A stretch of 59,864 nucleotides of DNA, filler included, from Porpidia crustulata (taxonomy: Eukaryota): the NCBI GenBank assembly GCA_964255105.1. It is 2 parts of 2 records of this genome, joined end to end, with 100 filler letters (N's around TTAATTAATTAA, not from the genome) between each part and the next. Parts side by side here need not be neighbours in the genome. Positions count along the whole stretch, not along the records: positions 1 to 29,904 come from CAXUWE010000023.1; 1 more part is not named here. One strand, 5' to 3'. The notes under the pieces are model-generated. The model worked only from the letters and a program-made list of their open reading frames with translations, made no database searches and was not told where the DNA came from. Positions 5,901 to 29,573 of the stretch are shown one piece after another; the stretch's first letter is position 1; the number at the start of each line of letters is the position of its first letter. A program made the position numbers and the translations under genes.

Positions 5901-8053
5901 ATGGACTCGAATACTTCGGTATTACACACCACCGCCCTGCTCGCAGGCGTGCTTGTGACCCTAGGATACCTGCTGTACCGGGCTGCTTTGCCAAAGCCCA
6001 TACCTGGAATACCGTGTGCTCGATATTCCATCAATCGGCTCTTCGGTGATGTACCAGATGCACTCAAGTACCATGCCAAAACCTCCGAGACGGTTGCGTT
6101 CCTCGCCTCGAGGTGCGAAGAGCTCAAGTCGCCCATCGTTCAAGTCTTTGTGCGGCCGTTTTCTCGGCCCTGGGTTGTACTCGCTGATAGCCGCGAGTAA
6201 GTACGATGGAGCCACTTATAGTGATAAGTTTGGAGAACCTGAAATGCTGATCGTCCAGGTCCCAGGATATAATGGTCCGCAGGACTCGAGAGTTCGATCG
6301 CTCTGGCTTTCACAGCGATCTGCTCGGGGCTGTTGTACCTAATCGTGAATGATCCCGAGTGCATTATGTTTGTTCATTGGCTGATGAGATGGATATAGAT
6401 CGTAAGCATTTCAGATGACGGGTGCAGAAGACGAGCTCACTCTCATGAAAGAGGTCGTCATGCGTACAAACGACCAGTGGCGTCACAATCGAAGGCTCGT
6501 TAATGATGCAATGTCTCCTCGATTTCTCAGCAATATCGCTAGTCAGCAGGTCTACAATCAAGCTTTGAACCTTGTCGAGCTGTGGCGGCAGAAAATGCGA
6601 TTAAGCAAAGGTCATGCCTTTAGTCTACGTGCAGATCTTTCATTATGCACAGCCGATTCTATCTGGGCCACAACGTTTGGAGACGATATCGCTGCCTGCA
6701 AAGTGCAAAGCGACTACCTGACGAGTCTCGATAGCATCAAATTACTCGAAGACGAAGAGGCCTTGGCTCAGTTTCCCGCCAAGCCAAATCCAGACGCTTA
6801 CGCTGCCTGGAAAGCGATTAGTGAGAGCGGTGAAATTCCAATGAACTCTCCACTTGGACGCCATCATCACGTAAGCTCGGCAAAGCAAGATGAAAAAGCG
6901 ACTAACAAGGTTCTCTATAGTGGTTCGCCGTCACCTTCTACCCTTACTTACGCCAAGCCATCTCACTCAAGAACAATATCGTCAAAGACAGGGTCGAAAA
7001 GGCCTGGGAAAAAGCCAAGATTGATAATACCAGTGAATCCAATGCAATCGATTCCATCGTTGATCTCGTCATCGATCGCGAAGTCGCATTGGCCAAGAAA
7101 GAAGGCAGGGTGTCAGAGCATGATTCGAAGTTCGTCTACGACGAGCTCGCTGGTTTCATGATCGCGGGAGTCGATCCTACAGCTACGAATATGGGCTGGG
7201 GTCTGAAGTATCTGGCGAAGCACAACGACGTACAGACCAGACTCCGAAAGGATCTACGAGAGGCCTTTCCTAGCGCTTTACAAGAAGGCAAACCCCCCAG
7301 TGCGAATGATATTACCAAAGCTCGTATCCCATACCTGGATGCTTTTATCGACGAGGTATTACGCCATAGCGGCGGCCAACCAACCAACGTCAGAATCGCC
7401 ATCAGCGACACTGAGATTCTGGGGTATCATATTCCCAAGGGAACAGATGTTTTCATGCTGGTCAGTATACCCCCCAAGCCTCTATCGAGCATGCCCTCTC
7501 CTTCATATGTGCTGGTCATGCCATGACCAGCCTCTTTTGACAAATCCAATGCAAGCTCCAGATACTAATCGCACACACAGACGATGGGCCCGAGCTACAA
7601 GTCCCCCGCCTTGCCTATTGACGAGAGCAGCCGAAGCCAAAGTTCTCGCGAATTCAAAAAAGATAGCGAGAAATGGGCTCATGAGGACCTCGGCAGCTTC
7701 AACCCCGACCGCTGGCTGGTCCGAAATGAGCAAGGCGAGATCGAGTACGATAGTCGCGCGGCTCCGATGCAAGCGTTTGGAGCTGGTATGAGGGCATGCT
7801 ATGGTATGTACTCGGTTGTGTCCTTCATCTGTTTATTGTTTACCATTTTCATTATGGCAAGCCATCAGTACTGTTTCTCACCATGTGCACAGGAAGAAAG
7901 CTTGCGTACCTCGAAATGCGCATCATATACGCGCTTGTGATCTGGAATCTGGAGGTCCAACCTCCGCCGGAAGCTTTGTTCGATTTCAAAGCAGTTGATA
8001 AACTCTCGCATCAACCGCAAAATGTGTATATGAGGTTCGATGTACCGAAGTAG
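5901..8053 (+). CDS. Cytochrome P450 monooxygenase (TRI13/CYP526-like N-terminus), about 6 exons
   Basis: N-terminal TM helix followed by ALPKPIPGIP. I-helix AGVDPT, K-helix EVLR, FNPDRW, and heme motif FGAGMRACYG across a splice junction. Approximate introns: 6197-6258, 6346-6398, 6871-6920, 7461-7580, 7805-7892. Confidence 0.93.
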
Positions 8054-9516
8054 GGGGAGACAACGAAACTGCTCGGGGTCCTTTCGCTTTTCTATCTCTT
8101 TAAAAAATCTTGTAACGGAACACCGCAATAGACTAAGGCACAATGCAGTGTGATTGCTAGAAAGAGAAGATTCTCCCTATAAAACATAGAAAGCTCAAAT
8201 TAGATCAGACTTCACTACTGTTTATGACTGTCTCCCCGTACGCCGCGGTCTCGTACCATACAGGTGCGGTTTACAGTCCTCACCTACTCATCCACATGCC
8301 CTACTATCCCAAACCCTTCAGATCCCCATATCTCGCCCCTGGATTTCCTCTCTCCTCATCTCCCCCCCTTTCTTTTCCACATCCACCTCTTGCGCCTGGG
8401 CTTCTGTTCATGCCTACAGTGCAAGCACGGTCTTGCCGTGACCCGGTAGGTCGAGCTTGTGGAAAAAAGCTAGACTGTATACAGAGGAGGTATCGGGACG
8501 AGTGAGTGGTATAGGAAAGACAAATAGCTCGCTACCGCATAAAAGATGCGCGTCGTCATCAACCGAATGTGTTACAGCAATAATGAATGCCTGGACTAGA
8601 CTCAAGCCTCTGTCTATTGGATATGACTGAGAACAAGCTGGCTCAGCCTCGCCTCGCGACCAGCGGATGTTTAACCCGATTGTATGTTGTCTACCAGTAA
8701 GGAATATCGGCAAATTCCAACATGTAGCCCCAACTTTGCAACATTTCCAAATTGTATGTCACTCCCCAAAGCAGCTAAAAGGTGTCTGTTCAACTCTGTA
8801 TGATTTCGCGCCCAGTCCCTGATTATCGACCTAAATCTTGCTTTGAATCGCTGCCTTGGCAGCTACTCGAATCTTGAACAGCATCTCGAAGAGGTGCTTG
8901 AAAAGCTGCCTACCCCGCCTACCTACCTACCTACCGCTACTTGAGAAGCTGCTTGAGGACTTGGCGAGAATTTTTCGAATTTTTCGGTTACTTGGTTACT
9001 TTGTGTACCGCGACGCGTCGTACCCCTACTATAATTGCCTCTGCGATTACTATTATATACATACTTGATTTTCATTTACCCACACACCTTGTTGAAGAAA
9101 AAAACGGAAATGGGTCTCGCCTGATTTCGCCTGATTTATACCAAAGCCATTTCCATTTTTTTCTTCAACAAGATGCCACAGTACCCTTTCACCTTGTCAC
9201 GATCACGGCTCGGAACAATTAGGGTTAGGGTTCCCGGTGGGGGGAAGGAAACCAAAGCAACACCGACCTCAACCAAAAGAAGAAGAAGAAGTCATGTGAC
9301 AATCCAAGAAAGCCACGGCGCCAAGAGGGTTGGACACCTTGGACAATCGTGCGTGTCCAAAAAGCACAAGAAGTCCGGGGATGGACATCTTGGACATGCT
9401 GAACACGAGGGTATTTCAAAGAGTATGTAGATCTCGAACACTGCGCTCTTAGGTATAGTTTGTGTTCAACTCAATCGTTCTCTATATAATACGGTGACTA
9501 TTAAGGTTGATTGACT

Positions 9517-9585: not shown

Positions 9586-10156
9586 GAAACAGCAAATTCG
9601 AGTTAAATTTAATCGTCTTCGTGATCGCTTTTCGCTAACTTCTCATCTCGCACCGAGATGGCGACCACGTAGTCGCTACATACTGCTATTGATATCACAC
9701 TGGTTACCCACTGCTACGCCCTATGATCCGTGATACTCATCTCCCGAGAACTAAGACCCTCTTGTGTAGCTCTGAATACACCTATCTACCTTTTTTTTTA
9801 CCTTCTCGCTTGCAATTTTAGCTTGCTCGACAGCTTTTTTCCTGTTTACCTACCTAGTGACGAAGCTGCTTGGTGAGCTGCTTGAAGAAGCTGCCCGGAA
9901 CTATGCTTGATATAGCTCTGTGAATAGCTTCAAATACTTTGTGTCACCCTGTACTGGATGCACTACAGCACACATGGAAAAAACTGCACTGTATTGTCTT
10001 CTAAGCTGTCTTCTACTTGCAAATCTAAGTCTATTGCAAATGCCCCTCTTCTATTTCGCTGGAACAAAGCTAAATCTAGTGTCGCGAAGATCTATGTCAG
10101 AATGCCTCCAACCAACTCAACTCATCACGTTTCACCCGTGACAACACCCTAATCCC

Positions 10157-12181
10157 TTACTCCTCCACTTCTTTAAGAGTGGTCAGGACGACATCGTACA
10201 AGCGTCCCGACCTGATCGACTCGTAGACCCGCGCGTTGTATAGCCCAATGCTCGGCGTGAGACCGTCCAGCGTCACGGCCTCGGTTGACGCTAGGTGCTC
10301 CTCGCCCAAGAACGGAACGCCGAGGTCCTCTCTAATGAAGCGGTATATGCGCAGCGAAGCTGGGCCAATGTACGGGGTCGCGTCGGGCGGGGCGTCCTTC
10401 CGGCCCTCAATCTCTATCGCGCGCAGGTCGAGCGCCTGACACAGCACCAAGAGGTGCGCCGAGGCGATCTGGGACAGCACGTCGACGGCCTCGAGTGTAT
10501 AGCGGGCGGAAACAAGCGCGAGGGAGTTGAGAGACTGGTTACCCATTTCGGCCGTCTGCACATGCGACCCAACGGGGTTGGCCAGAAAGCCCAACTCGGA
10601 CGTGAGGCCGGCAACGACCACGTCGAGCCCCTTGAACAGAAACGAGTCGTTGGGGTCGTCGGAGCACAGATTTGGCGGCAGGCCCCAGCTGGTGGTCGGG
10701 TTGATCATCTCGGTGCACTGGGCGAAAAGCATACGGCCGATGCTCTGCAGGCCCTGGCGCAGCTTCTCGGCCGCCGACGTGACGGCGCGCGCCTGGAAGT
10801 TACCGCCGTGGAACACGCGGCCTGTCGCCGTTTCGATCAGCGGATTGTCCGTCACCGAGTTCAGCTCGATTGTGAGCTGGTCGTGCGCCAGACAAAAATC
10901 TTCCAGCACGGGGCCGATCCACTGGCTGGCCGTGCGGATCGAATAGCGGTCCTGCCGTAGCGTCGCCTCGTTCTGGCTATCGTGCCGGTTCAGCAGCTGC
11001 GACCCGTTCAGGAACGCTTTGATATTTCGTGCACTATCCACCTGCCCAGGGTGCGGCCGCACTTGCGCAATGAACGGCTCGAAGCTCTCGTCACTACCAC
11101 GCAGCGCCTCCACGCTCATCGCCGTCAGCACCTGCGACAGCGCTGCGAGATTAAGGGACTCATGCGCCGCGAGAGCCGCCACGCCGGCCGACACAGCCGT
11201 GCCGTTGACGATGGCAAGGCCTTCTTTGGCGTGCAGACTGATAGGTGCTATGCCGGCCTCCTCCAGGGCGACATCGGCTCTCGTCACTCTCCTAGCGCCG
11301 TCGACGTCCCGTGGACCAGCGCAAGCCGTAGCGGATGACTTGCCTTGCATCACGGCGCCGATCCACGCGAGCGCGCTGAGGTCCCCCGATGCCGAGATGC
11401 TCCCACGGACGGGAATCCGTGGCACGACATCCTTATTCAAGAGGTTAACCAGGGAGTCCGCGATGTCGACCCGAATGCCCGACGCACCACCGGAGAGGGA
11501 ATTGAGGCGGATGATCATGGACGCCCGCGCCCATGACTCCGGCATGCAGGTAGCAGCGAGCGGGTCGTTGAGCGGAAGCGAACTTTTCACCAGCGTGCGT
11601 CGTCGTTGTTTTTTAAGGTCCTTGATGGGATCGGCCACGCCATTACTATGGCTGGGGTGGGTAACGCCGTTACTTTGGTCAAGGTGCGTTACGCCGTTGC
11701 TTCCATTACTTTGGCTAGGATGGGTAACGCCGTTGCTTTGGTCATGATGGGTTACGCCGTTGCTTCCATTGCTTTGGCCAGGATGGGTCACACCGTTGCT
11801 TTGATATAAATGTCCATTGCTCTTCCGGACGGGCTCCTGCTTACCGTCCGAAACGACTCCGCACGTCAGATGACTGATCAGGCTCTGCTGGACCCTCTCA
11901 ACGTCGTTGGATCTCGTATTAGCGCTGCCCCCGAATCCCGTGTTGACGCCGTATATGACATGGCCTTTGGCGACCTTCTCTGGGATGATCTTGCTGCACA
12001 CTTCGATGGCGTTGATGGACTCGGATGTGAGCTCCACATGTTTTAATTGTCTCGAGACTTCCACCACATCGGCGATGGTCAGGCTCCTTCCGTCAACGGC
12101 CAGAGTCGCCTTGGTGGGCAATGAAGGATCACGCCATTGTGAGAGGACTAAGCCTGTGAATGAGGACATTGAAGGGGCCAT
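10157..12181 (-). CDS. Aromatic amino-acid ammonia-lyase (PAL/TAL, MIO enzyme), intronless
   Basis: YGVNTGFGG, MIO motif SISASGDL (11384-11392), KEGLAIVNGT, RPHPGQ, LRQDRYSIR, SVTDNP, HGGNFQ, AEMGNQSLNSLAL. Likely ATG at 12181 (MAPSMSS). Confidence 0.97.
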   Translation of the reverse strand: MAPSMSSFTGLVLSQWRDPSLPTKATLAVDGRSLTIADVVEVSRQLKHVELTSESINAIEVCSKIIPEKVAKGHVIYGVNTGFGGSANTRSNDVERVQQSLISHLTCGVVSDGKQEPVRKSNGHLYQSNGVTHPGQSNGSNGVTHHDQSNGVTHPSQSNGSNGVTHLDQSNGVTHPSHSNGVADPIKDLKKQRRRTLVKSSLPLNDPLAATCMPESWARASMIIRLNSLSGGASGIRVDIADSLVNLLNKDVVPRIPVRGSISASGDLSALAWIGAVMQGKSSATACAGPRDVDGARRVTRADVALEEAGIAPISLHAKEGLAIVNGTAVSAGVAALAAHESLNLAALSQVLTAMSVEALRGSDESFEPFIAQVRPHPGQVDSARNIKAFLNGSQLLNRHDSQNEATLRQDRYSIRTASQWIGPVLEDFCLAHDQLTIELNSVTDNPLIETATGRVFHGGNFQARAVTSAAEKLRQGLQSIGRMLFAQCTEMINPTTSWGLPPNLCSDDPNDSFLFKGLDVVVAGLTSELGFLANPVGSHVQTAEMGNQSLNSLALVSARYTLEAVDVLSQIASAHLLVLCQALDLRAIEIEGRKDAPPDATPYIGPASLRIYRFIREDLGVPFLGEEHLASTEAVTLDGLTPSIGLYNARVYESIRSGRLYDVVLTTLKEVEE
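11636..11803 (-). repeat. Coding minisatellite inside the ammonia-lyase (63-bp / 21-aa period built from QSNGVTH subunits)
   Basis: QSNGVTHPGQSNGSNGVTHHD-QSNGVTHPSQSNGSNGVTHLD-QSNGVTHPSHSNGV. Confidence 0.9.
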
Positions 12182-12915
12182 GTTGATCCAGAACAAGGCG
12201 GGCAGTCAGAAATCCAAGGAAAAGGAGGGGACGATGAAAATACCTTTGTTATACATTCTTTCCCACTTGAAGGTGGCAATTTATAACATTTACTAAAGAC
12301 TTTAACTGCTTAGAAGCGTCATCGCAAGTACCATGAGCAACTATCACATCCGAGCTAGCTTTCCCCTACTTTGCATAACTAGTTTCACGAAGGAATCGAT
12401 GGGTGACGAGACTGTCAGCCGCCAGGGGCTGGGCAGGAGAGTGGGTCCACAAAAGGCTTGATCCTTGGGCTTAGCCTGCTTACGCTCGTGTATCGATCTC
12501 GGGCTTCTCCCGCATCATATGGCGAAGAGGCAAGCAATCCTTTACACGCCAACATGAACATCTTCTAGCGGCCGCACAGAGTACGTATGGTTCGGCCTTA
12601 CATTATGCAGGTCAGCTCAAATAAGCATGGCGAGGCAAGTAAAATCCTCAAGGCAGACCGCGGACCGCTGAGCGGCCTTTGGAGCCTTGTATATAGGCCG
12701 ATAAGGAGATATGAGAGACTCCGCCGTTATCCCGTTCCAAGCTTACCTTCCGATATTGCAGATCGATCCCGGGTTAGGCCGCTTGCTATCTTGGATACCT
12801 AGGTAGGCTGAACGAACGGCACGCTCTATCGTTTGCTAGCTGACTACAGTCGGTGAAGAAAACTAGCTTGATGAACTTCACTGTTATCAAAGCAAATGCG
12901 GTACCCGGAAGGGAA

Positions 12916-13232
12916 CCTTTTATACCTCAGGCGGTCTGAAATTTTTGTAAGTGCGCCAGTAGGGGGGATCCCGTCCGCTAAGCCACATTTTGTCTAGCGG
13001 TTTGGATTTCAAAAATCACGTTCAATTTGTCGTTTCACAACGCATCATTTTCAAAAGAGAAAAATATTTTAAAACAACGAGCAGATGTTTCAATTGATGA
13101 CGTGTCAGTTTTAAATATCTGAATATGTCGTTTTATGTTCAGTGTTTTACTTCAAAATATGATATTATGATCGCGGAAGAGCGATATATTAGTTTTTGAC
13201 CTAAAATTTTAGATCGTCTGAGGTATAAAAGG
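12916..13232. mobile_element. MITE-like element with ~30-bp terminal inverted repeats
   Basis: Left end ccttttatacctcaggcggtctgaaatttt matches the reverse complement of the right end, ccttttatacctcagacgatctaaaatttt (three G/A differences). Interior is AT-rich and non-coding. No clear TSD. Confidence 0.75.
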
Positions 13233-13416
13233 GGCCCCGAGAAGACCAAATCTGTATGTCGAATCACTGCTTGGTCGAAGTATGGCCTTTTGGGGATTCA
13301 TGATGTGCCTTGGCCTACCAATCACCAGATCGGCCAATCCTGACCATTGGGGGCTCTGGTTACATGGGCGATTTATAGATATGTTCATGGTCTATAACAC
13401 TCCCATGTTACAAATG

Positions 13417-14826
13417 TTACAGCATGGATGACTCTCTTGTCCCGTCGATACCATTGTGGGGTTTGACTCCATATCCATGGGTCTTGGAAAAGTTTTTCCA
13501 CGCCACTCGTCCACTTTCTGCAGCGTCGTACTCCCAGAGCCACTTGAACAGCTCATGATCTGCACCCGCACGAAATTTTGCATCGCGTTTCTCCTGGTCT
13601 GGGCCATCGGCAAAGGCAAATTTAGCCTTCTGGTCTAACGTGCGATGTCTGACATCCGAAGCTCGTGGTTTGCGAACCTCCTCGAACACCCTAAGGGCGT
13701 CCGGAATTTGGTCACGTCCCACCGGCAGGCTGAATATCCCTCCGAGGACTCCTGCATCCTCGAAGGCCTGTGCGGCACCCTGTGCGCTGAAGAGGAGTTA
13801 GCCAGTTCCATGATGAATAAAGAGACCATGGTTATACTTACAGGCATGGCAGTATTGCGTGAGCAGCGTCGCCAATCAGTACGAAGCGTCCACTCTCATG
13901 GCGCCATTGGGTCGGCTCATGGATCTGGAACAAAGTCCACTTGGTGCAAACAGACCCTTCCACATTGATAAGCTCATGAAGTACTGGGTCCCAGTCAGAG
14001 ATCTTGCTCCTGAACTCTTCTAGGTCTGCTCGCTGCGGCCCGTACATAACCTTGCCACTGCCACCCTCGGCATATACTAGGACTATATTAAGTATATCGT
14101 GCTGGATGAGGTACGAGACCACGTGTCCGCCTGATCCCATCCAAAAGTTGACGCTAGATCGTTTTTTCAGGTCCCAGGCTAGATGGTCTTCAGTTATATC
14201 TACTACAGGGACAGAGATCCGGTAGACGACATCGCCAGGACTGTAAGGAGGGTCCGCATGGCCCAACAGGATACCCCTACAGCGGGACCTCTCTCCGTCA
14301 GCACCCAGGATCACGTCTGCTTCATAAACCTCGCCGGTGGACAAACGGAGGGAGGGCTTGCTGAAATCGATCTCTTCGACGTCGCTGCCAAGTCTGACGT
14401 CTATCTTCTGCTTCCTCGCTCCGGACAACAAGGCTCTTAGGAGATCCGCACGATGAATCACGAGGTAAGGGGCCTTGTTGACCAGCCTCGGATCGGACAC
14501 GGGCGGAGACTGCGAGAGCACGTCTCCTCGATAGGAGCGGAACGTCCCGGCCTCGGGTCGGTCAGCGTACTTGAGGACCTCCTCAAGAACGCCCCAGCGT
14601 TGGAGCATCCGCGTAGCATTGGGTGCCAACTGAATTCCAGCGCCGATCTGTTAAAACTAAGTTAAAATAAGCTCGAATGTTATATCGAAAAGCATGAGAT
14701 TACCTCTTGTAGCTTAGAACTACGCTCGAACACTGTTACGCGGTGTCCAGCCTGAGCAAGAGCCAGTGCTGAAGCCAGTCCACTGAGACCGCAGCCCACA
14801 ACTAGGACACGACACTTGTACGCCAT
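13417..14826 (-). CDS. FAD-dependent aromatic monooxygenase (group A, salicylate hydroxylase / hydroxybenzoate 1-hydroxylase-like), 3 exons
   Basis: Exon 1 MAYKCRVLVVGCGLSGL (GxGxxG). IGAGIQLAPNATR, GADG motif, and LIGDAAHAILPCLAQGAAQAFEDA after splicing. Confidence 0.93.
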
Positions 14827-15390
14827 GTTAGGAATTGAAGGTGACAATTCCTTGTAGTTCCATAAGAATTTTAGAAAGATTATAACTTTGGTACTGGCCG
14901 TTTTTCAAAACAGGTACCTGGCGGGGAGAAAAAATACCGGCTTGGAAAATAACAGCAGGGTAAAAGTAACGGTTAAGTAATCTGATGCACATGAATTTTG
15001 TAGAACCCATTCCGCCTTTCCCGTGCTGACAATTATGCATAAGCCAGGATTATTTAGCATCCATCATGCATTTAGAGGCGGCCATAGTACTTCGAGTCTG
15101 TTGCGTGTCAGGGTGCCAATTGACTAGTTGTGATAACACGATCCATGATAACCACGCCTCACCGGCGCAGAACATAGGTATCATTGAAGTGAGCAATAGG
15201 GGGAAATATGCAAAAGTATACTGTCTATTTATGATCAAGAAAGAAAATTAATCTATCGGGAACATAATGGAACGGGCAGTCGAGCCATTCTATCTAGGGT
15301 ATGTGTTGTGGTTGTGTGATGAACCAAGTCTAGAGGAGGAAAAAGCCGCTCGATCACAGATCTATGTGGCCACCTCCGTCTATAGAATAA

Positions 15391-18885: not shown

Positions 18886-19098
18886 AAGAAGTTGTGTTTT
18901 CTGACCGAGCAACGTTATCCTGGCCGAGCTAAAGAAGTTGTGTTTTCTGACCGAGCAACGTTATTCTGGCCGAGCCAAAGAAGCAAAGATAATACAAAGG
19001 ATAGATTTTCTTTTTGAAACACCGAGGTCAATAATTGAAAATGAGGTATGGTTTTATTTAGCTTCGCCAGAATAATATTGTTTGGTCAGAAAACGTAA
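18886..19098. mobile_element. Second MITE-like element abutting the first; its left TIR is tandemly duplicated (46 bp x2)
   Basis: aagaagttgtgttttctgaccgagcaacgttat(c/t)ctggccgagc at 18886 and 18932. Inverted copy ttagcttcgccagaataatattgtttggtcagaaaacgtaa at 19058-19098. Confidence 0.75.
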
Positions 19099-19825
19099 TA
19101 AAACACACCCTGGCCATCCGCAAACGACTCTGGGCTCAGATGCGCTGAGCTCCAGTACGAGCTGAGCTATTCTTAGCAGCCCAGTCAGCTCGAGCTACAG
19201 CTCACTCTGGGTTATTTACCGCTCTGGTTGTTTGGATTACATAGTAGGTGGAGATAGGAGTACAGTACCGTCTCATATCAATTATACTAATCTAATCAAG
19301 GTGAAACCAGGGATTCAGTAGCATATATTCTTATCTTGCCTTATCTTGCAGGCTGCAGGAACAATAACCCGGCCACGTGCGATAATCAGCTAGGAACCAC
19401 AGCCTCGGGCCTCGTTTATACTCGTGATGAAGCATTGCTCAATCAATCAGGCTTGGTCTGACTGGAAGCCTGGAATTCGTATCCAAATTGAGGAGTGGCG
19501 ATCACAAGATCTTCCAGCCGTCAGCCACACGATCAGTCGTCCCGTCCGAACGTGCTATGCTGATGGGCTGTGCCTTGAAACGGGCTGGGATTCATTGTGC
19601 CGTCCCAACGTTGCTTTGCTGATTGGCACTGGCTCGGAGAGGAGGGAGACTTCGAGCGGCGTGGTAATGGACTAAATCCCGAGATTGGAATTGGTCGTAA
19701 GCCCAGCGCGAGGATTTCGGTGGCAATTCTGAGTCAAGACTACAAAAGCAGACGCTCGATGGAGAAAAAGAAATGCATTCCACATCTTACAATTGTTACT
19801 ACAGCACGACCGCAACGAAGCAGAA

Positions 19826-21609
19826 ATGGTCACTACCAAGTCCTTGATCGTGGCTTATGGCCTCGCCCTCCTGCCGCTGCTCGTGAGCAGTTCTCCCATC
19901 GTGCCTCGTTATTTTCAGAGAAACCTGTACTCGCGAGACAACATGACTGCAAGCACGGTCAAGACTGAGCTGGGCCGGCAACTTTCAAAAGGCTCGCTGA
20001 TCTTTGGACCTGATAGCGCCCTGTACCCAAATGCCACAGAAAGATGGAATACTCGTATCACGCCTAATGCTCAAGTTGTCGTGCAACCAGCAGCCGAGTC
20101 CGACTTTGCACATATTGTGAGTGGCCTATTCAGGAGATCCTTGAGAATTTGATGATATTCCTGCTGACTCTAGTCAACATAGGTCAAGTACTGTAATGAT
20201 AATAGCTTCGAGTTCCTCGTGAGGAATCGTGGTCATGGAACAACGGACTCCTTGTCAACTTTCTCTGGTATAGAAATCAATGTGGAAATGCTTACGGGCG
20301 TTACTATTCAGCCGGATAAGAAGACTGCTATACTCCAAGCAGGAACATTTATAGGTGAAGTCATAAACAAGCTTTGGGACCAGGGCTTTGTTGCCGGTAA
20401 GCGCTCTTTTACTCATTGAAAAGTTTCACCACTGATATTGATTTCGCTAGCCACTGGATCCGCAGGATGCGTTGGACTGATGGGTGCAGCACTGGGTGGT
20501 GGCCACGGGCGTTATGAGGGCCTCTACGGCTTGGTCCTGGATAACATTGTGCATTACAATGTTGTCTTGGCAGATGGCACAGAGCTCGGTGTAAATGAGA
20601 CAAGCCACCCGGATCTTCTCTATGCCTTGAAAGGGGCTGGTCACAACTTTGCCATCGTCACCAGTGTTGTGGAGAAGATTTATCCTCGGGAAAATTGGTA
20701 CCAGAAGACCTACACTTGGACGCAGGATAAGCTGGAGACTGTATTTGAAGCGCTGAACAAGTTCCACAAAAGTGCCAATGGCACCACACCTGTCAGGATG
20801 GGTGTCAGCTACGGGTCCATCATTATGAATACGTCCATTAGCACTACTGAAGTGAGTAGTCTTTTACCTCCACTTCAAGATTATTGCTGATTATGACCAG
20901 GCAGTGCTAGAGTGGGGCTTTGAATACGCCGGCCCTGCTGCTGACGCGGAAAAGCTCCTGGGACCATTCAATGCCATCAAGGCTATCCAAGTGGGCTCGG
21001 GCGAAGCCTCATACCCCGTTATATCTGGAGCCGACTATACCTTTTGTCCTGGCGCCAAGCGAGCCATCGCCAGTGTCATGACACTGGAGTATAACGCTAC
21101 AACAGAACGTGCGCTCTATAATCTTTTCAACAAGAACATAGCCAAGTACCCTGCACTCATTCCCTCCGCCTATCTTTGGCACGAAGGCTACGCGACTGCC
21201 GGCATGCAGGCCATACCTTCCGCCTCCACCGCCTACCCTCACCGCGAAGAAAACCATTTGCTGTAAGTCGTCCCCGGTCTGTGCGATGGGCACGTCTTAT
21301 TGTACATGTGATCAGGGAGATTAATTTTGTATCTACAGGGTCTTCTTCAGCGAAGTTCCGGCAGGGTCTGGCCTGACGGACGCGGCAGAGGCGTGGGCCC
21401 AGGAGAACCGGAGACTTTGGAACGCCGGCCAGCCCAACCGTCAGCCACAGACGTATGTGAATTACGCCCAGGGTAAAGACTACGAGACGCCTCAATCCGT
21501 CTATGGTTATGAACCATGGCGCTTGGACAAACTGCGCTCGCTCAAGGCGAAATACGATCCACATAACCGTTTCCGCTTCTTTGAGCCTATTGTATCTGGT
21601 TCGTCATAG
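19826..21609 (+). CDS. Secreted FAD-linked oxidoreductase (FAD_binding_4 plus berberine-bridge-enzyme-like C-terminus), about 5 exons
   Basis: Signal peptide MVTTKSLIVAYGLALLPLLVSS. RNRGHG carries the covalent-flavin His. Also CVGLMGAALGGGHGRYEGLYG, GAGHNFAIVT and YVNYAQG...WRLDKLRSLKAKYDPHNRF. Confidence 0.93.
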
Positions 21610-21671
21610 GTTCGACCCGCGGGGGGACTGCTTATTTCTTTGGAGCATGGTATATAACGGAGGCGATAATT

Positions 21672-21768
21672 TCATAGTTTTGTATTGGTACGGCATAGAT
21701 TGAAACCGCGGCAGACTGCTCATATTTTTGTATTGGTACGACATAGATTGTAAACTGCAGCGGGCTGC
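21672..21768. repeat. ~48-bp tandem duplication in the 3' flank of the oxidase gene
   Basis: tcata(g/t)ttttgtattggtacg(g/a)catagattg x2. Confidence 0.7.
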
Positions 21769-21825
21769 TCATTTCTTGAAGCATGTATGCAATCATCTCA
21801 TAGATTTGTATCATAGAACGTTCAT

Positions 21826-21980
21826 TTTTTTTTTTTTTTTTTTAAAATTAATAAAAATTTTTAAAAGAATTTTAAATTAAACAAAANNNNNNNNNNGGCT
21901 TTTCATTTTTTTAATCATTTTTTCAATCATATTATTTTTTTTTTTTTTTTTATTTTTTTTTTTTTTTTTTTTTTTTTTTG
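21826..21980. other. Assembly gap (10 N at 21887-21896) flanked by poly-T, low-complexity sequence
   Basis: N run with homopolymer flanks. Confidence 0.95.
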
Positions 21981-22304
21981 ACAGTTATAGACATTTTTAA
22001 AAGCATATTTAAGTATCCACAATCACATTGATATTTTCTCACTCGCTCGACTGATTTCGCTGGCCATTGACCCGTATAAGCCACCGAGTAAACTATCCTA
22101 TTCTCTCATCAGGTCTATGTACGCCACCACAAATCCCACTGATTGCCGAAATTCAGAGAGATCTGAGCCCTGAGATGACAATTCGCAACCTTATCTAATC
22201 CAGCACCAATCGAGGACAATCAGATATCTATTCAGTGCCGGGCCGGGCATTTTTCCAATCGGACTGTCAATGTGATGAAGGGCAATGGCAAGGGAGTGGA
22301 GAGG

Positions 22305-22486
22305 TAAGAGTATAGATCACAAGTCATGCATAGAGGGAAAATTTTAGGGTTATTTTTTACTAGCAAAACACTAACAAATTAAACCCAAATTCTGCTCCGC
22401 AAGTCAACCTATGTTTACTTTCGGGACTTGGTTAAAATAACCCTAACATTTCCCCTCTATGCATGACTTAATGATCTATACTCTTA
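22305..22486. mobile_element. Tc1/mariner-type MITE (~55-bp TIRs, TA target-site duplication)
   Basis: TA-agagtatagatcacaagtcatgcatagagggaaaattttagggttatttt ... aaaataaccctaacatttcccctctatgcatgacttaatgatctatactct-TA. Confidence 0.85.
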
Positions 22487-22678
22487 CAAAAGGGTGAATG
22501 TATACCAGGATTTATCAAACTCTGGTAAACCCAGTTACGTCAATCGATATCTGGAATTGAGATGCTCGAGATGTAATTCAGTCTCGCGGAGTCTATTAAT
22601 GGATGTACAGCGTACACCCATGTCGATAAATATATCTAATTCAAGTGTATCTAATTCAACTGATCCGGACCTCTGAAT

Positions 22679-23656
22679 TTACACCCACTGCTTATTTCCG
22701 AAATGCGAGACGAATGCACCGGCATACCCAGACTCGATGCTGGCCCTCTCCCAGAGGTCCCTGATAGTCTGAACGGCTCCTTCGACGGGGACTGGACCCT
22801 TGAAGTGAGGCGCGTAGGTTTGAGCCCTGCCCACGAATTTCATCAACCCCTCGGTCTGTTTTGGAGACACTGTGGGAACATTTTAGTAAAATGTTCGGAT
22901 GTTTCTCGGGAACGGAGGTACATACGGTCGCCAAAGTGGCCCACTTCCACCACTCCCGGGCTCAAACTGAAGACGAGCACGCCGTCTTTCTTGTATTGTG
23001 CGCTGAACTTGGCCACAATGATGTTCAAGGCCGCCTTGGAGGCAGCGTACAAGGCAGAATTCTCAATGTCGAAACCGTTGATGAATTCAAGATCGGCATG
23101 ACCACTGGTGATGGCGATGACCTTCTTGGTCTTGCTCTTCAATACAAGAGGCATGAAAAGGTTGAAGAAGTGGATGTTACCGGTGACATTGGTCTTGAAT
23201 AGTTTGTCTGCAATGTCGTCGAGCTCCTCATGCTGTTCGCCTCTGTGAAACAAACATCGTTAACCTCAAATAGTAATCAGAGGGAAGTAGACCTACAATT
23301 CACCAATAGCTGAATAAGCGTCGAACTGGGCGGGGAAACCTGCGTTGCCGACAAGGTAGTCAATGCCACGCTCGCCAACGATCTTGGCAGTCTCGGCAGC
23401 GGCTTGCTTCAGACTGGCATAGTTGGTGAGGTCTCCATGGACGATGTGGACGTTGGAACGCTTGCCCAGGTCTGTTGTCACCTTCTGTTCAGTGGCGGCC
23501 TTGTTACGGACCAAACCGACGACCAGGTTCTGCGGGTCTTCGGAGATGCTCTTGAGGAAGCCAAACTAGGCCAGATTAGACAGAGGCCAGGCGCGACCAG
23601 GCAGGCATACTCACGCCGATTCCGCTGGACACCCCGGTAATTACATAGACAGACAT
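22679..23656 (-). CDS. Short-chain dehydrogenase/reductase, about 4 exons
   Basis: Exon 1 MSVYVITGVSSGIG (TGxxxGxG), IDYLVGNAG, catalytic YAASK, LSPGVVE, and end FVSHFGNKQWV. Confidence 0.92.
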
Positions 23657-24099
23657 GTTGAGTGATTCGAACTTGAAATGGGTGCGAGTTGGTGCGAGTT
23701 GGTGCAAGTAAAATGGTGTGGAATGCGATGGGTTGAGTTACCAAGTTCAACTAGCTCCTAATATATGGCACGAAGCATGCACGGGGTGCTGAATAATGAG
23801 ATGGCTGCCTTGATTCACATTCTTGATTAATAATGTGGACATTCTTGATTAATAATTCGGACAGTTGCCTGGAGTCTCACTTCGCATGGCACCTGCATCT
23901 GCATTGAGTGGCACAGTGGTAGCTGCCTCACGGAATCGTCAGCTCCTTCTCAATCACATCCCGTCGCACGCCATGCAATGGCCATGCAATGAGAACCCTG
24001 CTCTGCTGTTGGGTGGGTTTTGGTGTATCAGTACCTATTTTACCTGTCCTTGCTGCCTCGGAATGTTTGGTGGCAACGGCGCTAAGAGGCTCTGTGAAC

Positions 24100-24310
24100 C
24101 GACTAACCCATATTGGAACATGCAGGTGAGATCGGACAAACACGACGGAGCAAGTAAACTCTCCGCTCGAGTCAGATTGCCAGACGGCATCCACCAGTTG
24201 TTTCTGACCCATATTGGACTGGTTTGCATGATGCAGATAAGATCGGAAAAGCGCCACGGAGCAATTAAAATCTTAGCTCTGGGTATGCAGGTCAGACCGC
24301 CAGACGGCTT
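24100..24310. promoter_or_regulatory. Duplicated ~110-bp promoter block with two CGG-N10-CGG motifs in the divergent SDR/P450 promoter
   Basis: gatCGGacaaacacgaCGGagcaa (24133-24148) and gatCGGaaaagcgccaCGGagcaa (24244-24259). Flanks acccatattgga and gccagacggc are also duplicated. Confidence 0.5.
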
Positions 24311-24721
24311 GTGGGCAGTTATGAGAGATAGGCTGCGCACTCAGGAGAAGTATCCGAGCCTTGCCGGGCAAAGTGGCTCCTGCCGCTGACAGGGGGCAAA
24401 ATCCTGGATTTAGCTTGCATGGGACTCCCACCCCCTTCCGAGGAATAACACCATCTTCTTGACCGCTACAAAGTAAGAAGATCCAGCCATAATGGCACTG
24501 TGAGCCATGTCATGCAAACCTTGGGTGTGCAACTTGGGAGCTTGCCTGGAAATACTAAAGAGTGATCTACAGCCAAGCGAGCATCATCCGCTAAATTGAC
24601 CTCTATCTATGCCCATCACTATTATCCCTGCGCCGACTATATCACACTTCTTCCTTCCCAATGGCCTGAAAAGTAACGGGACCGCCAGCGGCATCTCATC
24701 TCCTACCTGGCGGCTGCTGTC

Positions 24722-26423
24722 ATGTATTCGATCGAAAGCTCGTACTACCCCTTTCTGGGACTTTTTCTTTTTTTATGCAGCAGCTGTGTAGCACTCGTTC
24801 AATTCTTGAAACCCACCGACTTGAAACGGTCCGGTGGCAGGAAGAGATGGGCAATGCCACCAGGGCCACCAGGCCTACCAGTCTTAGGAAACTTGTGGCA
24901 GATGATGCAAGCCCGCCGAGGCGGAGCCCTTTCTTTCAATGAGTGGGTGAGTTTCAAACCTGTCGAACACAAGCACGTGCCTGGATCTGAACGTCCTGCA
25001 GCTATCCTCCTTGATACCGTATGGTGAAATGGTGACGCTTCATATGGGATCTAAGACTTGGATTGTGCTCAACTCGGACCGCGTCGTCTCGGAGCTCATA
25101 GCCAAGCGAGGGAAGATTACCAACGAGAGACCCCAGATGCCCATCGCGAGTGATCTTGTGAGCAATGGAAAGCGCACAGTCATAAGGCAAGAAGAAGAAT
25201 GGCGAGAGGGACGCCGCGTGATGCATCAGCTGCTCAGCGGCTCGAATCTCCAGGTCTACGCTGGCATGCAGGAGCTCGAGAGCGTGGACATGCTGCGCCG
25301 ATATGTTCGGGAGCCCAACCTGTGGTTTTCTCACAACTTTCGATATGCCACGTCCGTTCTTTACAGAATCGTCATGGGCTACCCATTGAACAAGACCAGA
25401 GCGGCGCTAGATGACTATCAGAGGGTGACAATCGAGTTTGTCACGACCATCAACCGTAGTTATGTGGATTTCTTCCCTTCGCTTAGCAAGCTACCCCATC
25501 TCCTACAACCTTGGCGGCATTACTGGGCTCAGATGGGCTCGTTCCATCGCCGTGTCTTTCAGCAATGGTGGGACCCCATCAGAGCGGCCGTGAGTAAGGG
25601 CTCGGCGCCGCCCTCGTTTGTCCGCGACGTTCTTCTAAATCCGGATACAAAGTACTCTGGCGATGATGAAGAGGCCATGTATCTGGCTACGTCTGTCATG
25701 GCAGCTGGTGGTGACAACACACGCATGACGATCAACACATTCATTATGGCCATGATCACGCACCCCGAAGCCCAGGCTCGGGCACGCGAAGAAATCGATC
25801 GAGTGTGCATGAGCGGTCGCTCGCTCAGGCTTCCCCGGATGTCCGATCTTTCGGAAATGCCTTACGTAGCCGCTATGATTAAAGAGACCTTACGTTGGCG
25901 ACCGACCGTCCCCATCGTTCCACCCCACCAAGTCACCGAGAACCTTGAGTTTGATGGGCACTTCATCCCTGCCGGCACAGTCTTACTGATCAATTCGATA
26001 GCACTGTCGAGCGAATTTGAGAATGCCCATGAGTTCCAGCCGGAGAGATGGATTGATGGCTCGGAAGCCAGAACGACAAATAACTTCTGGGGGTTCGGGG
26101 GCGGCCGTCGGATCTGCGTCGGCTGGAAGGTTGCGGAGCAAGCTTTATTCATTTCATTTGCTCGTTTGCTTTACTGTTTCGAATTGAGTCCGGTTTGTTC
26201 ACCTTTGCCTCTGGTCCATCACCTTGGTTCTGAGCGACGGATCACTAACGCATGAGATGTCTAGCGCGGGCCTATCGACAGCGAGAGACTCAACCACCAA
26301 ACTGTCAACGAGCCATTCCCTGTCAAGGCCACCGTTCGCAGCGCCGAACACGCATCGCTCATCGAGGAGGAAGCATCCAAGTACGAAGCTTCATTCTCTA
26401 AATTCGGGTCGAGGGCCAAGTGA
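24722..26423 (+). CDS. Cytochrome P450 monooxygenase (aromatic-substrate type), 3 exons
   Basis: TM helix, MPPGPPGLPVLGN, I-helix AAGGDNT, KETLRWRP, FQPERW, heme motif FGGGRRICVG. Last exon ends ...FGSRAK with TGA at 26421-26423. Confidence 0.95.
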
Positions 26424-28166
26424 GCCTGATTTAGCATGTTCAGCAATGCACAACGTGGTAGAGCATGGTATGGTATAAGCGTCACGGCCAGATCAAACCT
26501 GAGAGGACTTCTAGAAAGAAAAGTTAGCCATGGACATCCGACTGCCCAATTCAATCAAGACAGAAGTCGTTCCAAACCGAAATTGTATAGATCTGTCAAC
26601 GGGGTGGTCATGAAGTGATAGCGGCTACATTGAAGAATGCCGGCACCTAACCTTCGCTCGATCCGGATGATTAGCACCTATACATAATCGTACAAGAGGT
26701 CAATCACTGTCGTCTATGCCACCGAGATTCTGCCCCACTAGTCTGATCAAGGCCTGAACAAATATGCCGCGTCTCCATGGCCCCTGTTACAGCTCTAGGG
26801 CTCCCATCGGTCGAGATGCGTGCGTACGCATCCTGGAGCTGACGCTTGTCCGTCTCAGCGGGTGGTGTCATAGAAGCCGACTCAGACAATTTCAAAGGTG
26901 GCAGATTGGGATTATTCAACAGATGATACATCTGATTCGCTATCAAATTTATTTATATATACCGAATGCGCATTCTCAAGACATGTCTTGAGATGGTGAA
27001 GAGCCCCTTGAAGGGAAAAATCTTGAAAATGCCGGTCCACTGAAACTCAATTTCCCAGTAATCATTTTCATGAAACGTAGCAAATCTACCACGATCTGGT
27101 CCGTCCTCGGTTTTTTGGCTGGGCAAAGCATGCAGAATCCCTTCGGGTCCCTTCGGGTCCATTCGGGGTAGACTGAGCTTTCCCTACATCTTCTTGCTAC
27201 CTGCGTGCGGGATCATTAATGTTGAGCGGGAGGACCCAAATGCGAGCAAGGCAGGAGCCCCGTTTCCGGTCCCGTTTGAACCCATCGGTGAGTGGTCGAC
27301 CACCAAGGAGGGTGACACAAAAGTCAGTGGAGTCAGGCCCTTTCGAGACATCTCCAGCTCAGGTCTCACCCGCAATCTACCTACGGATGAAGAAACTACG
27401 GGCGCGCATGAGGGAACTGCTATGACGTTGTGATCGGCTATTTGAAGTTGGTGATGAAACTAAGGTATTAAATCGTGCTGATGATGATGATGGCTTCATG
27501 TGGTTAGCAAAAATTTCGATGTTTTGGTGGGATTGAAGATAGCGCGGTAGAGCTGACTCCCTTGACTTTTGTCATCCTCTGTGCCACCAGACTGTTGGAC
27601 GGCAACGTGTCAGCCCAGCTCGCTACGGACCGTTATCTTGGGCGCGAAAAAACCATGTCATAGCTAATGCATTGTCACTTGGTTGATGCGACTAGCTTGA
27701 TATCTAATGCAAGCACACCGAGTATCAACAATCTCTTTCCCAAAACTCCGATCCGCCTCTCACTTGCATATTCGTTCCAAACGTTATTCAACGGAGGCTT
27801 GGTGATCGCTGCTGTTAGGCCCTGTTGGTGCTGTGTGATATCCCATAGTTACTAAGCTGCCAAGCTTTGTGCATTTACCACTTAGTTAGCATTTCTTTTG
27901 TATGTGAAATACGAGCAACCGATATACTACTCAAGTGGCTGAATAATAGCCCCCTAACCTGATCAATTGTTGGCCGGATTGAATGTAAATTATATGGAGA
28001 TGCTGCGATGCAGACTAGGCGCCATTTGCCTTATCGAGGGACGATCCCCGAAGACGTTAAACATCATCAATTACTCTTTGTTGTCCTTTCCGGAACTCAT
28101 CTGTTCTTTTTTTCAAGGGCTCATACTATCAATATTATTAGATGCTGATGTGATAGAGCTTTCACT

Positions 28167-29573
28167 ATGGCTTCTTCAATCACTTCGAACGGTGTGGGCC
28201 ACGCGGCTAAGGCTCTACCGATCCTGGATGAGGTCAATCAAGAGATCCGTTCTGATGGTGAGGACCGAGCCTTCTGGTGGGAAACCATGTCCGGAACTCT
28301 GGCCACGCTCCTCCAGGCAAATCAATACAGCGATGAAGCGCAACGTCACTATCTCCGTTGGTTTCAGAAATGGGTTCCCCCGGCTCTGGGGCCACGTCCT
28401 GTCAACGGCAAACCCTATTACGGTTCATGGCTAACTCATGATCTGTCGCCCTTCGAATTCAGTATCAACTGGAAAGAGAAGAGTCGCAAACAAATCGTCC
28501 GCTTTACCTTTGAACCAACTACGAAGCAGGCAGGGACAGCCACCGATCCCATCAACCAGCTGGGGACAAAAGAGTTTATGAACACAATCTCGAAAGACGT
28601 ACCGGGTCTGGATCTAATACGATTCAATCAGTTCCTCGAGGCAACCAACGTACCCAGCGATGGCGTGGACGATGCCATAGCAAAGCACCCACCCAACTTC
28701 CCACGGTGCCGCGCCGTCCTCGCCTTCGACCTGGAGCACTCCGGCGACCTCATGGTTAAATCATACTTCCTGCCGCACTGGCGCGGGCTTCAGAGCGGGA
28801 TCCCGGCCAAGACCATCATCTCCGACGCGGTCCGGGCATGCAACGGGCCCGACGGGTTGTCGTACGATGGATCGGTGGATGCCATCATGTCGTACCTGTC
28901 GACGTTCGAAGGGCAGGAGGACGCGCCGCTGGCCTGGCTTCTCGCCAACGACTGCGTGGCCGACACGCCCGGGATGCGCCTCAAGGTCTACATCCTCGCC
29001 GAGGCGGACTCGCTCACCAAGCTCAACGACATGTACACCCTGGGCGGCCGCCTGAAGGGCGTCCGCACCGCCGCCAGTCTCGAGGGCATCCGTGAGTTAT
29101 GGTACCACCTGTTCGGCCTCAGCGGCTTGGACCCAGCCGCTAACGACAAGGTCTGCGTCGACAAGATGAAGTGCGTTTTCGTCTATGAGATGCGCTCCAC
29201 GCACGGCTCGGAGCCCGACCTCGATGTCAAGCTCCACCTTCCAATGTGGCAGCTCGGGAAATCGGATGGGCAGCTTAGCGAGATGATGGCTTCTTGGTTC
29301 GAGAGCCACGGTCATCCTGATCTCGCCGCCAGGTATAAATCCGACTTGAACAAAGCATTGTCCGTCTCCCCCTTTTCTTTCCTTTCCCCACCTTATTGTG
29401 TTTTTCATCAAGTTGGCCCAGAAGCTAACATGTGGTTTCAAAGTCCCAAGCACGGAATTACAGAAAATAAGGGTGTAGGAACCCATACTTGGCTGTCCAT
29501 CACCCACACGCCGAAGACGGGGCTTTATATGACTATGTATCTCAGCCCGAAACTCCCCGAAGTCTACTACTGA
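28167..29573 (+). CDS. DMATS-superfamily (ABBA-fold) aromatic prenyltransferase, one in-frame intron at 29360-29443
   Basis: FWWET, ALGPRP, SPFEFSINW, VRFTFEP, AGTATDPINQ, LAFDL, VKSYF, RLKVY, YTLGGRL, YMTMYLSP. The late intron position is typical of DMATS genes. Confidence 0.95.
   Translation: MASSITSNGVGHAAKALPILDEVNQEIRSDGEDRAFWWETMSGTLATLLQANQYSDEAQRHYLRWFQKWVPPALGPRPVNGKPYYGSWLTHDLSPFEFSINWKEKSRKQIVRFTFEPTTKQAGTATDPINQLGTKEFMNTISKDVPGLDLIRFNQFLEATNVPSDGVDDAIAKHPPNFPRCRAVLAFDLEHSGDLMVKSYFLPHWRGLQSGIPAKTIISDAVRACNGPDGLSYDGSVDAIMSYLSTFEGQEDAPLAWLLANDCVADTPGMRLKVYILAEADSLTKLNDMYTLGGRLKGVRTAASLEGIRELWYHLFGLSGLDPAANDKVCVDKMKCVFVYEMRSTHGSEPDLDVKLHLPMWQLGKSDGQLSEMMASWFESHGHPDLAARYKSDLNKALSVSPFSFLSPPYCVFHQVGPEANMWFQSPKHGITENKGVGTHTWLSITHTPKTGLYMTMYLSPKLPEVYY

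Follow-up and report, generated by a model that had tools for sequence, protein, structure and literature searches.

A gene cluster of the lichen-forming fungus Porpidia crustulata that resembles the siccayne, biscognienyne and asperpentyn pathways

A fungal gene cluster that pairs an aromatic amino-acid ammonia-lyase with a soluble aromatic prenyltransferase raises the question of which pathway it encodes and whether that pathway is a new one. We addressed this question for a stretch of DNA from Porpidia crustulata (GCA_964255105.1), called the window here, which is 59,864 bases long and consists of two joined contigs. Contig A (CAXUWE010000023.1) covers positions 1-29904 and is followed by an artificial contig linker (N44-TTAATTAATTAA-N44, 29905-30004), in agreement with the contig end at 29904 given in the initial annotation of this DNA; genes after 30005 lie on the other contig, contig B, and are not neighbors of the cluster. 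Eight consecutive genes on contig A had been described in that annotation as a combination not recognized as a characterized cluster, with a prenylated hydroquinone or enyne derived from phenylalanine or tyrosine as the likely type of product. We found that the enzymes resemble those of three related fungal pathways (bis, aty and iac), and the cluster is probably the visible part of a lichen-fungus pathway of this family, which by homology would lead from 4-hydroxybenzoate to prenylated enyne hydroquinones or epoxyquinols.

The bis cluster of Biscogniauxia sp. 71-10-1-1, which makes biscognienyne B, was considered as passages of two reviews relate it from Lv et al. 2020 (PMC12720273, PMC8341276). 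As outlined there (PMC12720273), the UbiA-type enzyme BisJ prenylates 4-hydroxybenzoate, the cytochrome P450 BisI turns the prenyl group into an enyne to give eutypinic acid, BisD decarboxylates eutypinic acid to siccayne, the ABBA-type enzyme BisB attaches another prenyl group, yielding pestalodiol E, and the cupin BisC together with the short-chain dehydrogenase/reductase (SDR) BisF completes biscognienyne B; BisK is a phenylalanine ammonia-lyase (PAL). For the aty pathway to asperpentyn in Aspergillus sp. PSU-RSPG185, the passages of PMC12356543 name the PAL AtyH, the P450 AtyI, the flavin adenine dinucleotide (FAD)-dependent decarboxylase AtyG (eutypinic acid to siccayne), the UbiA enzyme AtyB, the cupin AtyE, the aldehyde reductase AtyD and an SDR ketoreductase (AtyC). 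Each cluster of this family 'contains its unique genes', in the words of a Diatrypaceae review (PMC11376284). The initial annotation had assumed that the known enyne pathways use a UbiA-type prenyltransferase instead of a soluble DMATS. This did not hold for bis, in which the UbiA enzyme BisJ acts first and the DMATS-type enzyme BisB second, according to the same account (PMC12720273).

Core enzymes of the cluster

Using Pfam, we scanned 148 stop-to-stop translations of at least 70 amino acids (aa) from 1-31328, out of 153 such open reading frames (ORFs); four of the remaining five were included in a separate Pfam scan and 31988-32428 was left out. The intergenic scan comprised 150 of 163 fragments of at least 35 aa and 64 more (three from contig B), with 6 of the 163 left out. 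Spliced models were built with GT..AG introns, tblastn with full-length homologues, and RNA joints. All eight expected Pfam families were found on contig A in the order P450, PAL or tyrosine ammonia-lyase (TAL), FAD monooxygenase (FMO), Zn2Cys6 transcription factor, berberine bridge enzyme (BBE)-like oxidase, SDR, P450 and DMATS. The corresponding spliced models (589, 674, 432, 482, 512, 272, 524 and 440 aa) were free of internal stops and spanned 5901 to 29573, which are exactly the limits first given for the cluster. No polyketide synthase (PKS), non-ribosomal peptide synthetase (NRPS), terpene synthase, UbiA or cupin was found at E<=0.05 in the contig A ORFs and fragments scanned, bearing out the earlier statement that PKS, NRPS and terpene cyclase are missing from the eight genes. 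With regard to the UbiA-type prenyltransferase, none of the 148, 150 and 64 queries gave a Pfam match to that family, and contig A ends 331 bases after the DMATS stop codon. The same scans gave no match for a cupin epoxidase, although a small multi-exon cupin could slip through a fragment scan and the contig is cut by its end. The final 345 bases of contig A (29560-29904) held no convincing reading frame. An RNA contig of a relative extended 255 letters past 29789, indicating that transcribed sequence continues beyond the end of contig A.

The DMATS gene (28167-29573, +; exons 28167-29359 and 29444-29573) encodes an ABBA-type aromatic prenyltransferase of 440 aa, with an in-frame intron of 84 bases and a Pfam Trp_DMAT match at 28149-29570 (+) with an E-value of 3.3e-82. 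The spliced protein was 93% identical to a Lepraria finkii protein, 91% to one of Gyalolechia and 70.5% to BisB over the full length (441 columns), while the unspliced frame, compared with a large protein collection, was 85% identical to Gyalolechia, 80% to Endocarpon pusillum and 66% to BisB of Biscogniauxia sp. Solved DMATS structures matched weakly, the best of 16 matched sequences being 8DAY (E 8e-31). In a maximum-likelihood tree of 38 sequences, the window DMATS and BisB fell into one 12-row clade with a support of 100/100. This clade comprised BisB, three other sequences from Sordariomycetes (two Biscogniauxia, one Discula), two from Dothideomycetes and six from lichens including that of the window. 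Proteins annotated as tyrosine prenyltransferases fell outside it. A Colletotrichum higginsianum protein annotated as 4-O-dimethylallyl-L-tyrosine synthase shared 51% identity with the window DMATS and was separated from it by starred branches; SirD and TyrPT were absent from this tree. The enzyme does not appear to belong to the TyrPT sequence group and is, as judged by identity and phylogeny, an orthologue of BisB, the siccayne prenyltransferase. Since it is a BisB orthologue, its presence is no mark of a new, UbiA-free logic. Endocarpon, which belongs to a different class, nested within the Lecanoromycete group of the tree. When we scanned metagenomes with the DMATS alignment, two loci of 1,817 and 2,248 bases were obtained, without neighbor genes.

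The second P450 gene (P450 no. 2; 24722-26423, +; exons 24722-24946, 25002-26192 and 26265-26423) encodes 524 aa with a Pfam p450 match at 24951-26252 (+; E 1.9e-66). Over the full length, the protein was 95% identical to one from Usnea florida, 87% to one from B. marginata, 84% to one from B. mediterranea, 85% to one from Aspergillus udagawae and 76% to PFICI_01577 of Pestalotiopsis fici. The latter is described in the passages of PMC8998291 as a homologue of BisI and AtyI (~79% and ~78% identity) that lies outside the iac cluster, beside the putative hydroxylase PFICI_01576. Because of the 76% identity to PFICI_01577 and the 84-87% identity to the Biscogniauxia P450s, we predict that P450 no. 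2 is the enyne-forming P450 of the BisI/AtyI group.

The FMO gene (13417-14826, -; exons 13417-13786, 13842-14647 and 14704-14826) encodes a group A FAD monooxygenase of 432 aa with a FAD_binding_3 match at 13841-14904 (-). Over its full length, the protein shared 87% identity with its B. marginata homologue and 84% with that of B. mediterranea, as well as 76% with PFICI_01576 and 73% with PesG of Pestalotiopsis humus; the identity to an Aspergillus udagawae protein was 83%. The matches in the Protein Data Bank (PDB) were headed by 8GSM, a '4-hydroxybenzoate decarboxylase' (E 1.8e-58), with 8X38, a 'decarboxylative vanillate 1-hydroxylase', next. The FMO is thus predicted to be a decarboxylating 1-hydroxylase of a 4-hydroxybenzoate, similar to BisD and AtyG. 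We also observed that P450 no. 2 and the FMO are unusually conserved for secondary metabolism, at 95% to Usnea or Endocarpon and 83-87% to Sordariomycetes or Aspergillus; their clusters at 90% identity comprise 75 to 104 members. This conservation may be due to strong selection, to transfer of the gene cluster or to mis-binning of contigs.

The ammonia-lyase gene (10157-12181, -) is intronless and encodes a PAL/TAL-type enzyme of 674 aa, with a Lyase_aromatic match at 10160-12205 (-; E 8e-145). Its best PDB match was the PAL 1Y2M (E 1e-119), and the ASG triad of the 4-methylideneimidazole-5-one (MIO) cofactor was present. The enzyme is of the eukaryote PAL type. At the selectivity switch, the window enzyme has His-Leu ('ishl') opposite the His-Gln ('ehql') of the bifunctional yeast enzyme. 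His-Leu is the pair of the bacterial TAL whose selectivity switch was described in 2006, which makes direct use of tyrosine by the window lyase plausible. The lyase is also without ~100 aa of the C-terminal domain of yeast PAL, the alignment jumping from chain residue 551 to 653, and its nearest relatives have SH[LM] at the switch and the same loss of ~100 C-terminal residues. An Asn/Gly-rich insert of ~100 aa with imperfect repeats (units like QSNGVTHP) lies between the N-terminal part and the MIO domain (~11549-11848, -); the insert is shorter in the Heterodermia and Colletotrichum relatives and absent from others.

Grouping and transcription in related fungi

We judged gene neighborhoods from the locus tags and contig sizes attached to protein matches. 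The tags of DMATS and P450 homologues differed by one or two in Endocarpon pusillum (001061/001063), Polycauliona (003306/003308) and Calogaya (000040/000041), and in Usnea florida their accessions ended in ...794 and ...796. P450 and FMO homologues lay close by each other in P. fici (01577/01576), Penicillium macrosclerotiorum (007764/007767) and Aspergillus viridinutans (005018/005015). Within B. mediterranea and within B. marginata, the DMATS, P450 and FMO homologues were found on contigs of equal size (127,211 and 168,654 bases, respectively), and the three were also found on contig(s) of 24,769 bases. A single contig of 598,027 bases in Heterodermia speciosa carried the PAL (tag 009569) as well as the P450 (tag 009573). 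Orthologues of the cluster genes also lie on long contigs of Endocarpon pusillum (96,094 bases, tags GJ744_001061-63), Usnea florida (242,207), Polycauliona (84,101) and Calogaya (113,990), and on a chromosome-scale sequence of Xanthoria calcicola.

The Heterodermia pair bears on an N10 assembly gap (21887-21896), which lies in an A/T-rich spacer flanked by the 3' end of the BBE-like gene and that of the SDR gene and at which the initial annotation had feared a misjoin. PAL and P450 no. 2 lie on either side of this gap, and the linkage of their homologues in Heterodermia answers the concern. Among the contigs listed from the DNA and RNA runs of relatives, none crossed the gap itself.

Sequencing runs gave a second line of evidence. 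One run had a word share of 0.97 with 22000-29900 and is possibly its source, thirteen runs of other organisms had 0.18-0.20, and five lichen metatranscriptome runs had 0.06-0.13. We compared two DNA runs and two RNA runs with the window over 9905-29904; the thinly covered stretches 17242-19242 and 27247-27913 were disregarded. The DNA contigs of two relatives (X2 and X3) were mostly 90-99% alike to the window and covered 30 of 30 and 28 of 30 bins, respectively, in the same order. A single ultra-conserved gene as the source of the 0.18-0.20 word share was rejected on this coverage, at 90-95% likeness; the share reflects related species that carry the whole locus. The listed contigs of X2 and X3 likewise stop near 29904. 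Since the same genes adjoin in other genera and the DNA contigs of two relatives are collinear with the window over the compared 20 kb, the grouping goes beyond chance.

Spliced sequences of the FMO, transcription factor, BBE-like, SDR and P450 no. 2 genes occurred in RNA contigs (88-95% alike to the window) of two lichen metatranscriptome studies. The joints removed introns, most of which had canonical ends. They were located at 14647>14705 in the FMO gene; at 15963>16026 and 16954>17006 in the transcription factor gene (in two metatranscriptome runs); at 20851>20901 and 21257>21339 in the BBE-like gene; at 22865>22926, 23242>23297 and 23559>23615 in the SDR gene; and at 24945>25001 and 26191>26264 in P450 no. 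2 (in two runs). The lyase gene was covered from 10090 to 11640 without joints, and the DMATS gene was covered as well. These observations indicate that relatives of the fungus transcribe at least five of the cluster genes in natural thalli.

Remaining genes of the window

Four further genes are interspersed with those described above. P450 no. 1 (5901-8053, +; exons 5901-6196, 6259-6344, 6407-6870, 6921-7460, 7581-7803 and 7893-8053) encodes ~589 aa with the haem motif FGAGMRACYG, and Pfam p450 matched on three fragments (6406-7937, +). Its model was built with GT..AG introns only and had 15 alternative solutions, of which the three listed differ in the last intron only; the gene lies outside the 20-kb stretch (9905-29904) compared with RNA. 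The Zn2Cys6 transcription factor gene (15391-17041, -; exons 15391-15963, 16026-16543, 16633-16956 and 17008-17041) encodes ~482 aa with Zn_clus and Fungal_trans_2 matches at 15394-16966 (-), the limits of its middle intron being ambiguous.

The BBE-like FAD-linked oxidase (19826-21609, +; 512 aa in five exons) has FAD_binding_4 and BBE matches at 20183-21606 (+) and a signal-like N-terminal segment. It contains a His in RNRGHG and a Cys in GSAGCVG, which we take to be the usual positions of covalent FAD attachment, and its PDB matches were glucooligosaccharide oxidase, EncM and BBE-like proteins at E ~1e-12. The SDR gene (22679-23656, -; exons 22679-22869, 22926-23242, 23297-23565 and 23615-23656) encodes 272 aa with an adh_short match at 22846-23565 (-) and the TGxxxGIG and YxxxK motifs; its PDB matches were generic SDRs only (E 2.7e-8). 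We predict that the SDR is a ketoreductase. The BBE-like oxidase, P450 no. 1 and the Zn2Cys6 factor could not be matched to any of the bis and aty enzymes with roles described in the passages cited above. For four of the eleven bis genes (BisA, BisE, BisG and BisH), roles were not found in the open literature searched, which does not extend to the primary bis, aty and iac papers and their supplements.

Between the divergent transcription factor and BBE-like genes lies a 2.8-kb spacer (17042-19825) without a domain match, which was the least conserved part in the DNA contigs of relatives. Downstream of P450 no. 2, a stretch without a recognizable protein (26424-27400, +) was covered by RNA: relatives' RNA contigs went ~0.5-1 kb beyond the P450 stop, a contig of run X17 reached 26944, and one of X15 continued 255 letters past 27126. 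Pfam gave nothing in 26424-27400, and the ORF at 27074-27430, for which an Atlas search gave no usable match and recognition was low, was not called as a gene. The DMATS and P450 of Endocarpon, Polycauliona and Usnea are separated by a single locus tag or accession number. The stretch may be a long 3' untranslated region or a small unannotated gene. A short repeat near 27126 (units like CCCTTCGGGT) varies in length between species.

The sole further Pfam match on contig A was a HET (heterokaryon incompatibility) domain gene at the left edge (1353-3113, -), which is adjoined by a 196-aa open frame without a domain match (3363-3950, -); both are outside the cluster. Contig B carries the housekeeping genes PEX11, NOL10 and Med13 and, at its far end, a partial reducing PKS identified by Pfam, which cannot be counted as a neighbor of the cluster because it sits on a separate contig. 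This highly reducing PKS part (56002-59864, -) includes a ketoreductase domain, an SdgA-type C-terminal acyl carrier protein and an acyltransferase domain, and runs off the window. Its surroundings (also at 49718-50686, +) include an SDR, a DUF1275 protein and ankyrin-repeat ORFs, and the region constitutes another secondary-metabolite locus, separate from the cluster. Contig B begins with three adjoining long frames (30770-34459, -; 373, 290 and 597 aa) that gave no Pfam match at E<=0.01 and could together form a single large gene of unknown family.

Proposed route, alternatives and known pathways

By analogy with AtyH, BisK and PanA (the PAL of the panepoxydone pathway), the lyase would deaminate phenylalanine, or perhaps tyrosine given its His-Leu switch, and feed the 4-hydroxybenzoate pool via cinnamate or p-coumarate. 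A UbiA-type enzyme encoded off the contig would then make 3-prenyl-4-hydroxybenzoate. Its close homology suggests that P450 no. 2 would convert the prenyl chain by oxidation into the 1,3-enyne of eutypinic acid, and homology together with the best PDB relative points to the FMO as the enzyme that would decarboxylate and hydroxylate eutypinic acid to siccayne. The DMATS, as the orthologue of BisB, would add the second prenyl group to yield a compound of the pestalodiol E type. Oxidation, epoxidation and ketoreduction would follow, with the SDR as the likely reductase. The BBE-like oxidase and P450 no. 1 would be tailoring enzymes without an assigned step, and the Zn2Cys6 factor is the likely regulator.

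Several observations weigh against assigning the cluster to the bis/aty/iac family. UbiA and cupin, two defining enzymes of the family, had no match in the contig A fragments scanned, and no enyne meroterpenoid from a lichen fungus was found in the literature searched. BisI, BisD, BisK, AtyI and AtyG were compared only by way of the Biscogniauxia species, P. fici and published identities, and the equal size of contigs in Biscogniauxia is an indirect sign that the homologues share a contig. The RNA came from related lichens, another organism than that of the window, and its contigs cannot rank expression. A spliced joint was seen in these contigs neither for the intronless PAL nor for DMATS, though both were covered.

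The missing UbiA and cupin matches on 29.9 kb are also what would be expected of a self-contained lichen variant that uses neither enzyme. In such a pathway, the DMATS would perform the first or only prenylation, of 4-hydroxybenzoate or hydroquinone, and the BBE-like oxidase and P450 no. 1 would carry out quinone formation, epoxidation or chromene closure, comparable to PanH. This would give a function to an oxidase and a second P450 for which the published aty pathway has no step, and there is a precedent in basidiomycetes, where a P450 stands in the place of the ascomycete cupin according to the passages of PMC12720273. With 70% rather than 90% identity to BisB, the DMATS might act on a shifted substrate. 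However, the fungi whose proteins match P450 no. 2 and the FMO at 84-87% identity make the substrate with a UbiA enzyme, which argues for the same substrates here, and the contig runs out 331 bases past the DMATS gene. Split loci are known as well, since the P450/FMO pair of P. fici lies apart from the rest in the account of PMC8998291, and a BBE-like enzyme or second P450 may belong to bis too, among its four genes without a described role. We consider this variant unlikely.

Conservation beyond close relatives was shown for PAL, FMO, P450 no. 2 and DMATS only. This would also fit a single pathway made of these four alone, with P450 no. 1, the BBE-like oxidase, the SDR and the transcription factor as neighbors that have other roles. 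Yet the other four genes are interleaved with the core instead of lying at one edge, the four tag steps between PAL and P450 in Heterodermia leave room for intervening genes, and spliced transcription factor, BBE-like and SDR transcripts occur in the same libraries of relatives as the core genes, making this reading improbable. A tyrosine-based phenylpropanoid route, in which the DMATS would prenylate tyrosine like SirD or TyrPT and a TAL-like lyase would release a prenylated coumarate, draws on the His-Leu pair of the lyase and on the functional tyrosine O-prenyltransferases that passages of PMC11443524 report from lichen fungi. It is highly improbable: the DMATS lies in the BisB clade, whereas the Colletotrichum protein annotated as a tyrosine prenyltransferase is in a different starred clade at 51% identity, and the route leaves a BisI/AtyI-type P450 and a decarboxylating 4-hydroxybenzoate hydroxylase without a function.

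Of the readings weighed, we prefer membership in the bis/aty/iac family: the cluster is probably a lichen copy, cut by the contig end, of the characterized pathway to siccayne, biscognienyne and asperpentyn, and represents no new class of biosynthesis. The chemical class proposed at the outset, a phenylalanine- or tyrosine-derived prenylated hydroquinone or enyne, fits the homology to the bis, aty and iac enzymes, and the warning that the contig end may hide genes was sound. The premise of UbiA-only enyne pathways fell, as did the view of an uncharacterized combination, for the bis, aty and iac pathways include a PAL, a FAD decarboxylase, an enyne P450, an ABBA prenyltransferase and an SDR, and three of the window enzymes are close homologues of ones encoded in or beside those loci. 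A broader claim is unlikely, namely that a highly conserved siccayne-type cluster, distinct from bis and aty in having a BBE-like oxidase and a second P450 but neither UbiA nor cupin in cis, is maintained by lichen-forming fungi from several families and by Endocarpon and is expressed in their thalli. If it were true, the very high P450 and FMO identity across fungal classes would point to strong selection or to cluster transfer between lineages; and if the BBE-like oxidase or P450 no. 1 replaced the missing steps, or the DMATS prenylated first, a rewired route would lead to a lichen enyne or chromene hydroquinone not described so far.

Enyne prenyl-hydroquinones, among them siccayne, eutypine, asperpentyn and the biscognienynes, are fungal metabolites with bioactivity. 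A survey of 67 lichen DMATS genes in 2024 placed some in a network cluster with 'a PT active on siccayne' (PT, prenyltransferase), as quoted from PMC11443524; a description of the present cluster in lichens was not found in the literature searched, and the passages of that survey do not describe the locus. The analysis shows that the siccayne-type prenyltransferase sits with an enyne P450, a decarboxylase and a PAL, that this set recurs in several lichen genera, and that it is transcribed by related lichens in nature. The result gives lichen chemists a concrete compound class to seek and an intron-mapped gene set for heterologous expression, which is still hard for lichen genes. It is useful for work on lichen natural products and unsurprising to a specialist in fungal meroterpenoids.

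Compared with known systems, the window holds candidates for the siccayne ABBA/DMATS enzyme (a feature of the bis and iac branch only), the enyne P450, the FAD-dependent decarboxylating hydroxylase and the PAL. The panepoxydone pathway of Panus rudis is similar in that the PAL PanA and the FAD-dependent decarboxylating hydroxylase PanI lead to prenylhydroquinone, but as described in the passages of PMC12720273 it has no enyne and no DMATS and epoxidizes with the P450 PanH, and is relevant only as a precedent for a P450 in place of a cupin. The aty pathway shares PAL, enyne P450, FAD decarboxylase and SDR with the window, whose P450 and FMO are 85% and 83% identical to those of Aspergillus udagawae; in contrast, the aty genes described in the source passages include neither a DMATS-type second prenyltransferase nor a BBE-like oxidase. 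In the iac pathway of Pestalotiopsis fici, which makes iso-A82775C, IacE prenylates siccayne to pestalodiol E (PMC8998291 and PMC12720273), and the PFICI_01577/01576 pair is 76% identical to the window pair; the cupin epoxidase and SDR ketoreductase of iac are IacF and IacG. IacE was not identified among the DMATS matches. The P. fici pathway is split between loci in that account, whereas the P450, FMO and prenyltransferase genes of the window are together. The PAL (BisK), FAD-dependent decarboxylating hydroxylase (BisD), enyne P450 (BisI), ABBA/DMATS enzyme (BisB) and SDR (BisF) of bis all have counterparts of the same type in the window, and the window P450 and FMO are 84-87% identical to other Biscogniauxia proteins that apparently share a contig with BisB homologues. 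The window differs from bis in that BisJ (UbiA) and BisC (cupin) have no match on contig A, in the addition of the BBE-like oxidase, P450 no. 1 and the Zn2Cys6 factor, in gene order as judged by the letter order B, C, D ... I, J, K, and in its host, which is a lichen-forming fungus.

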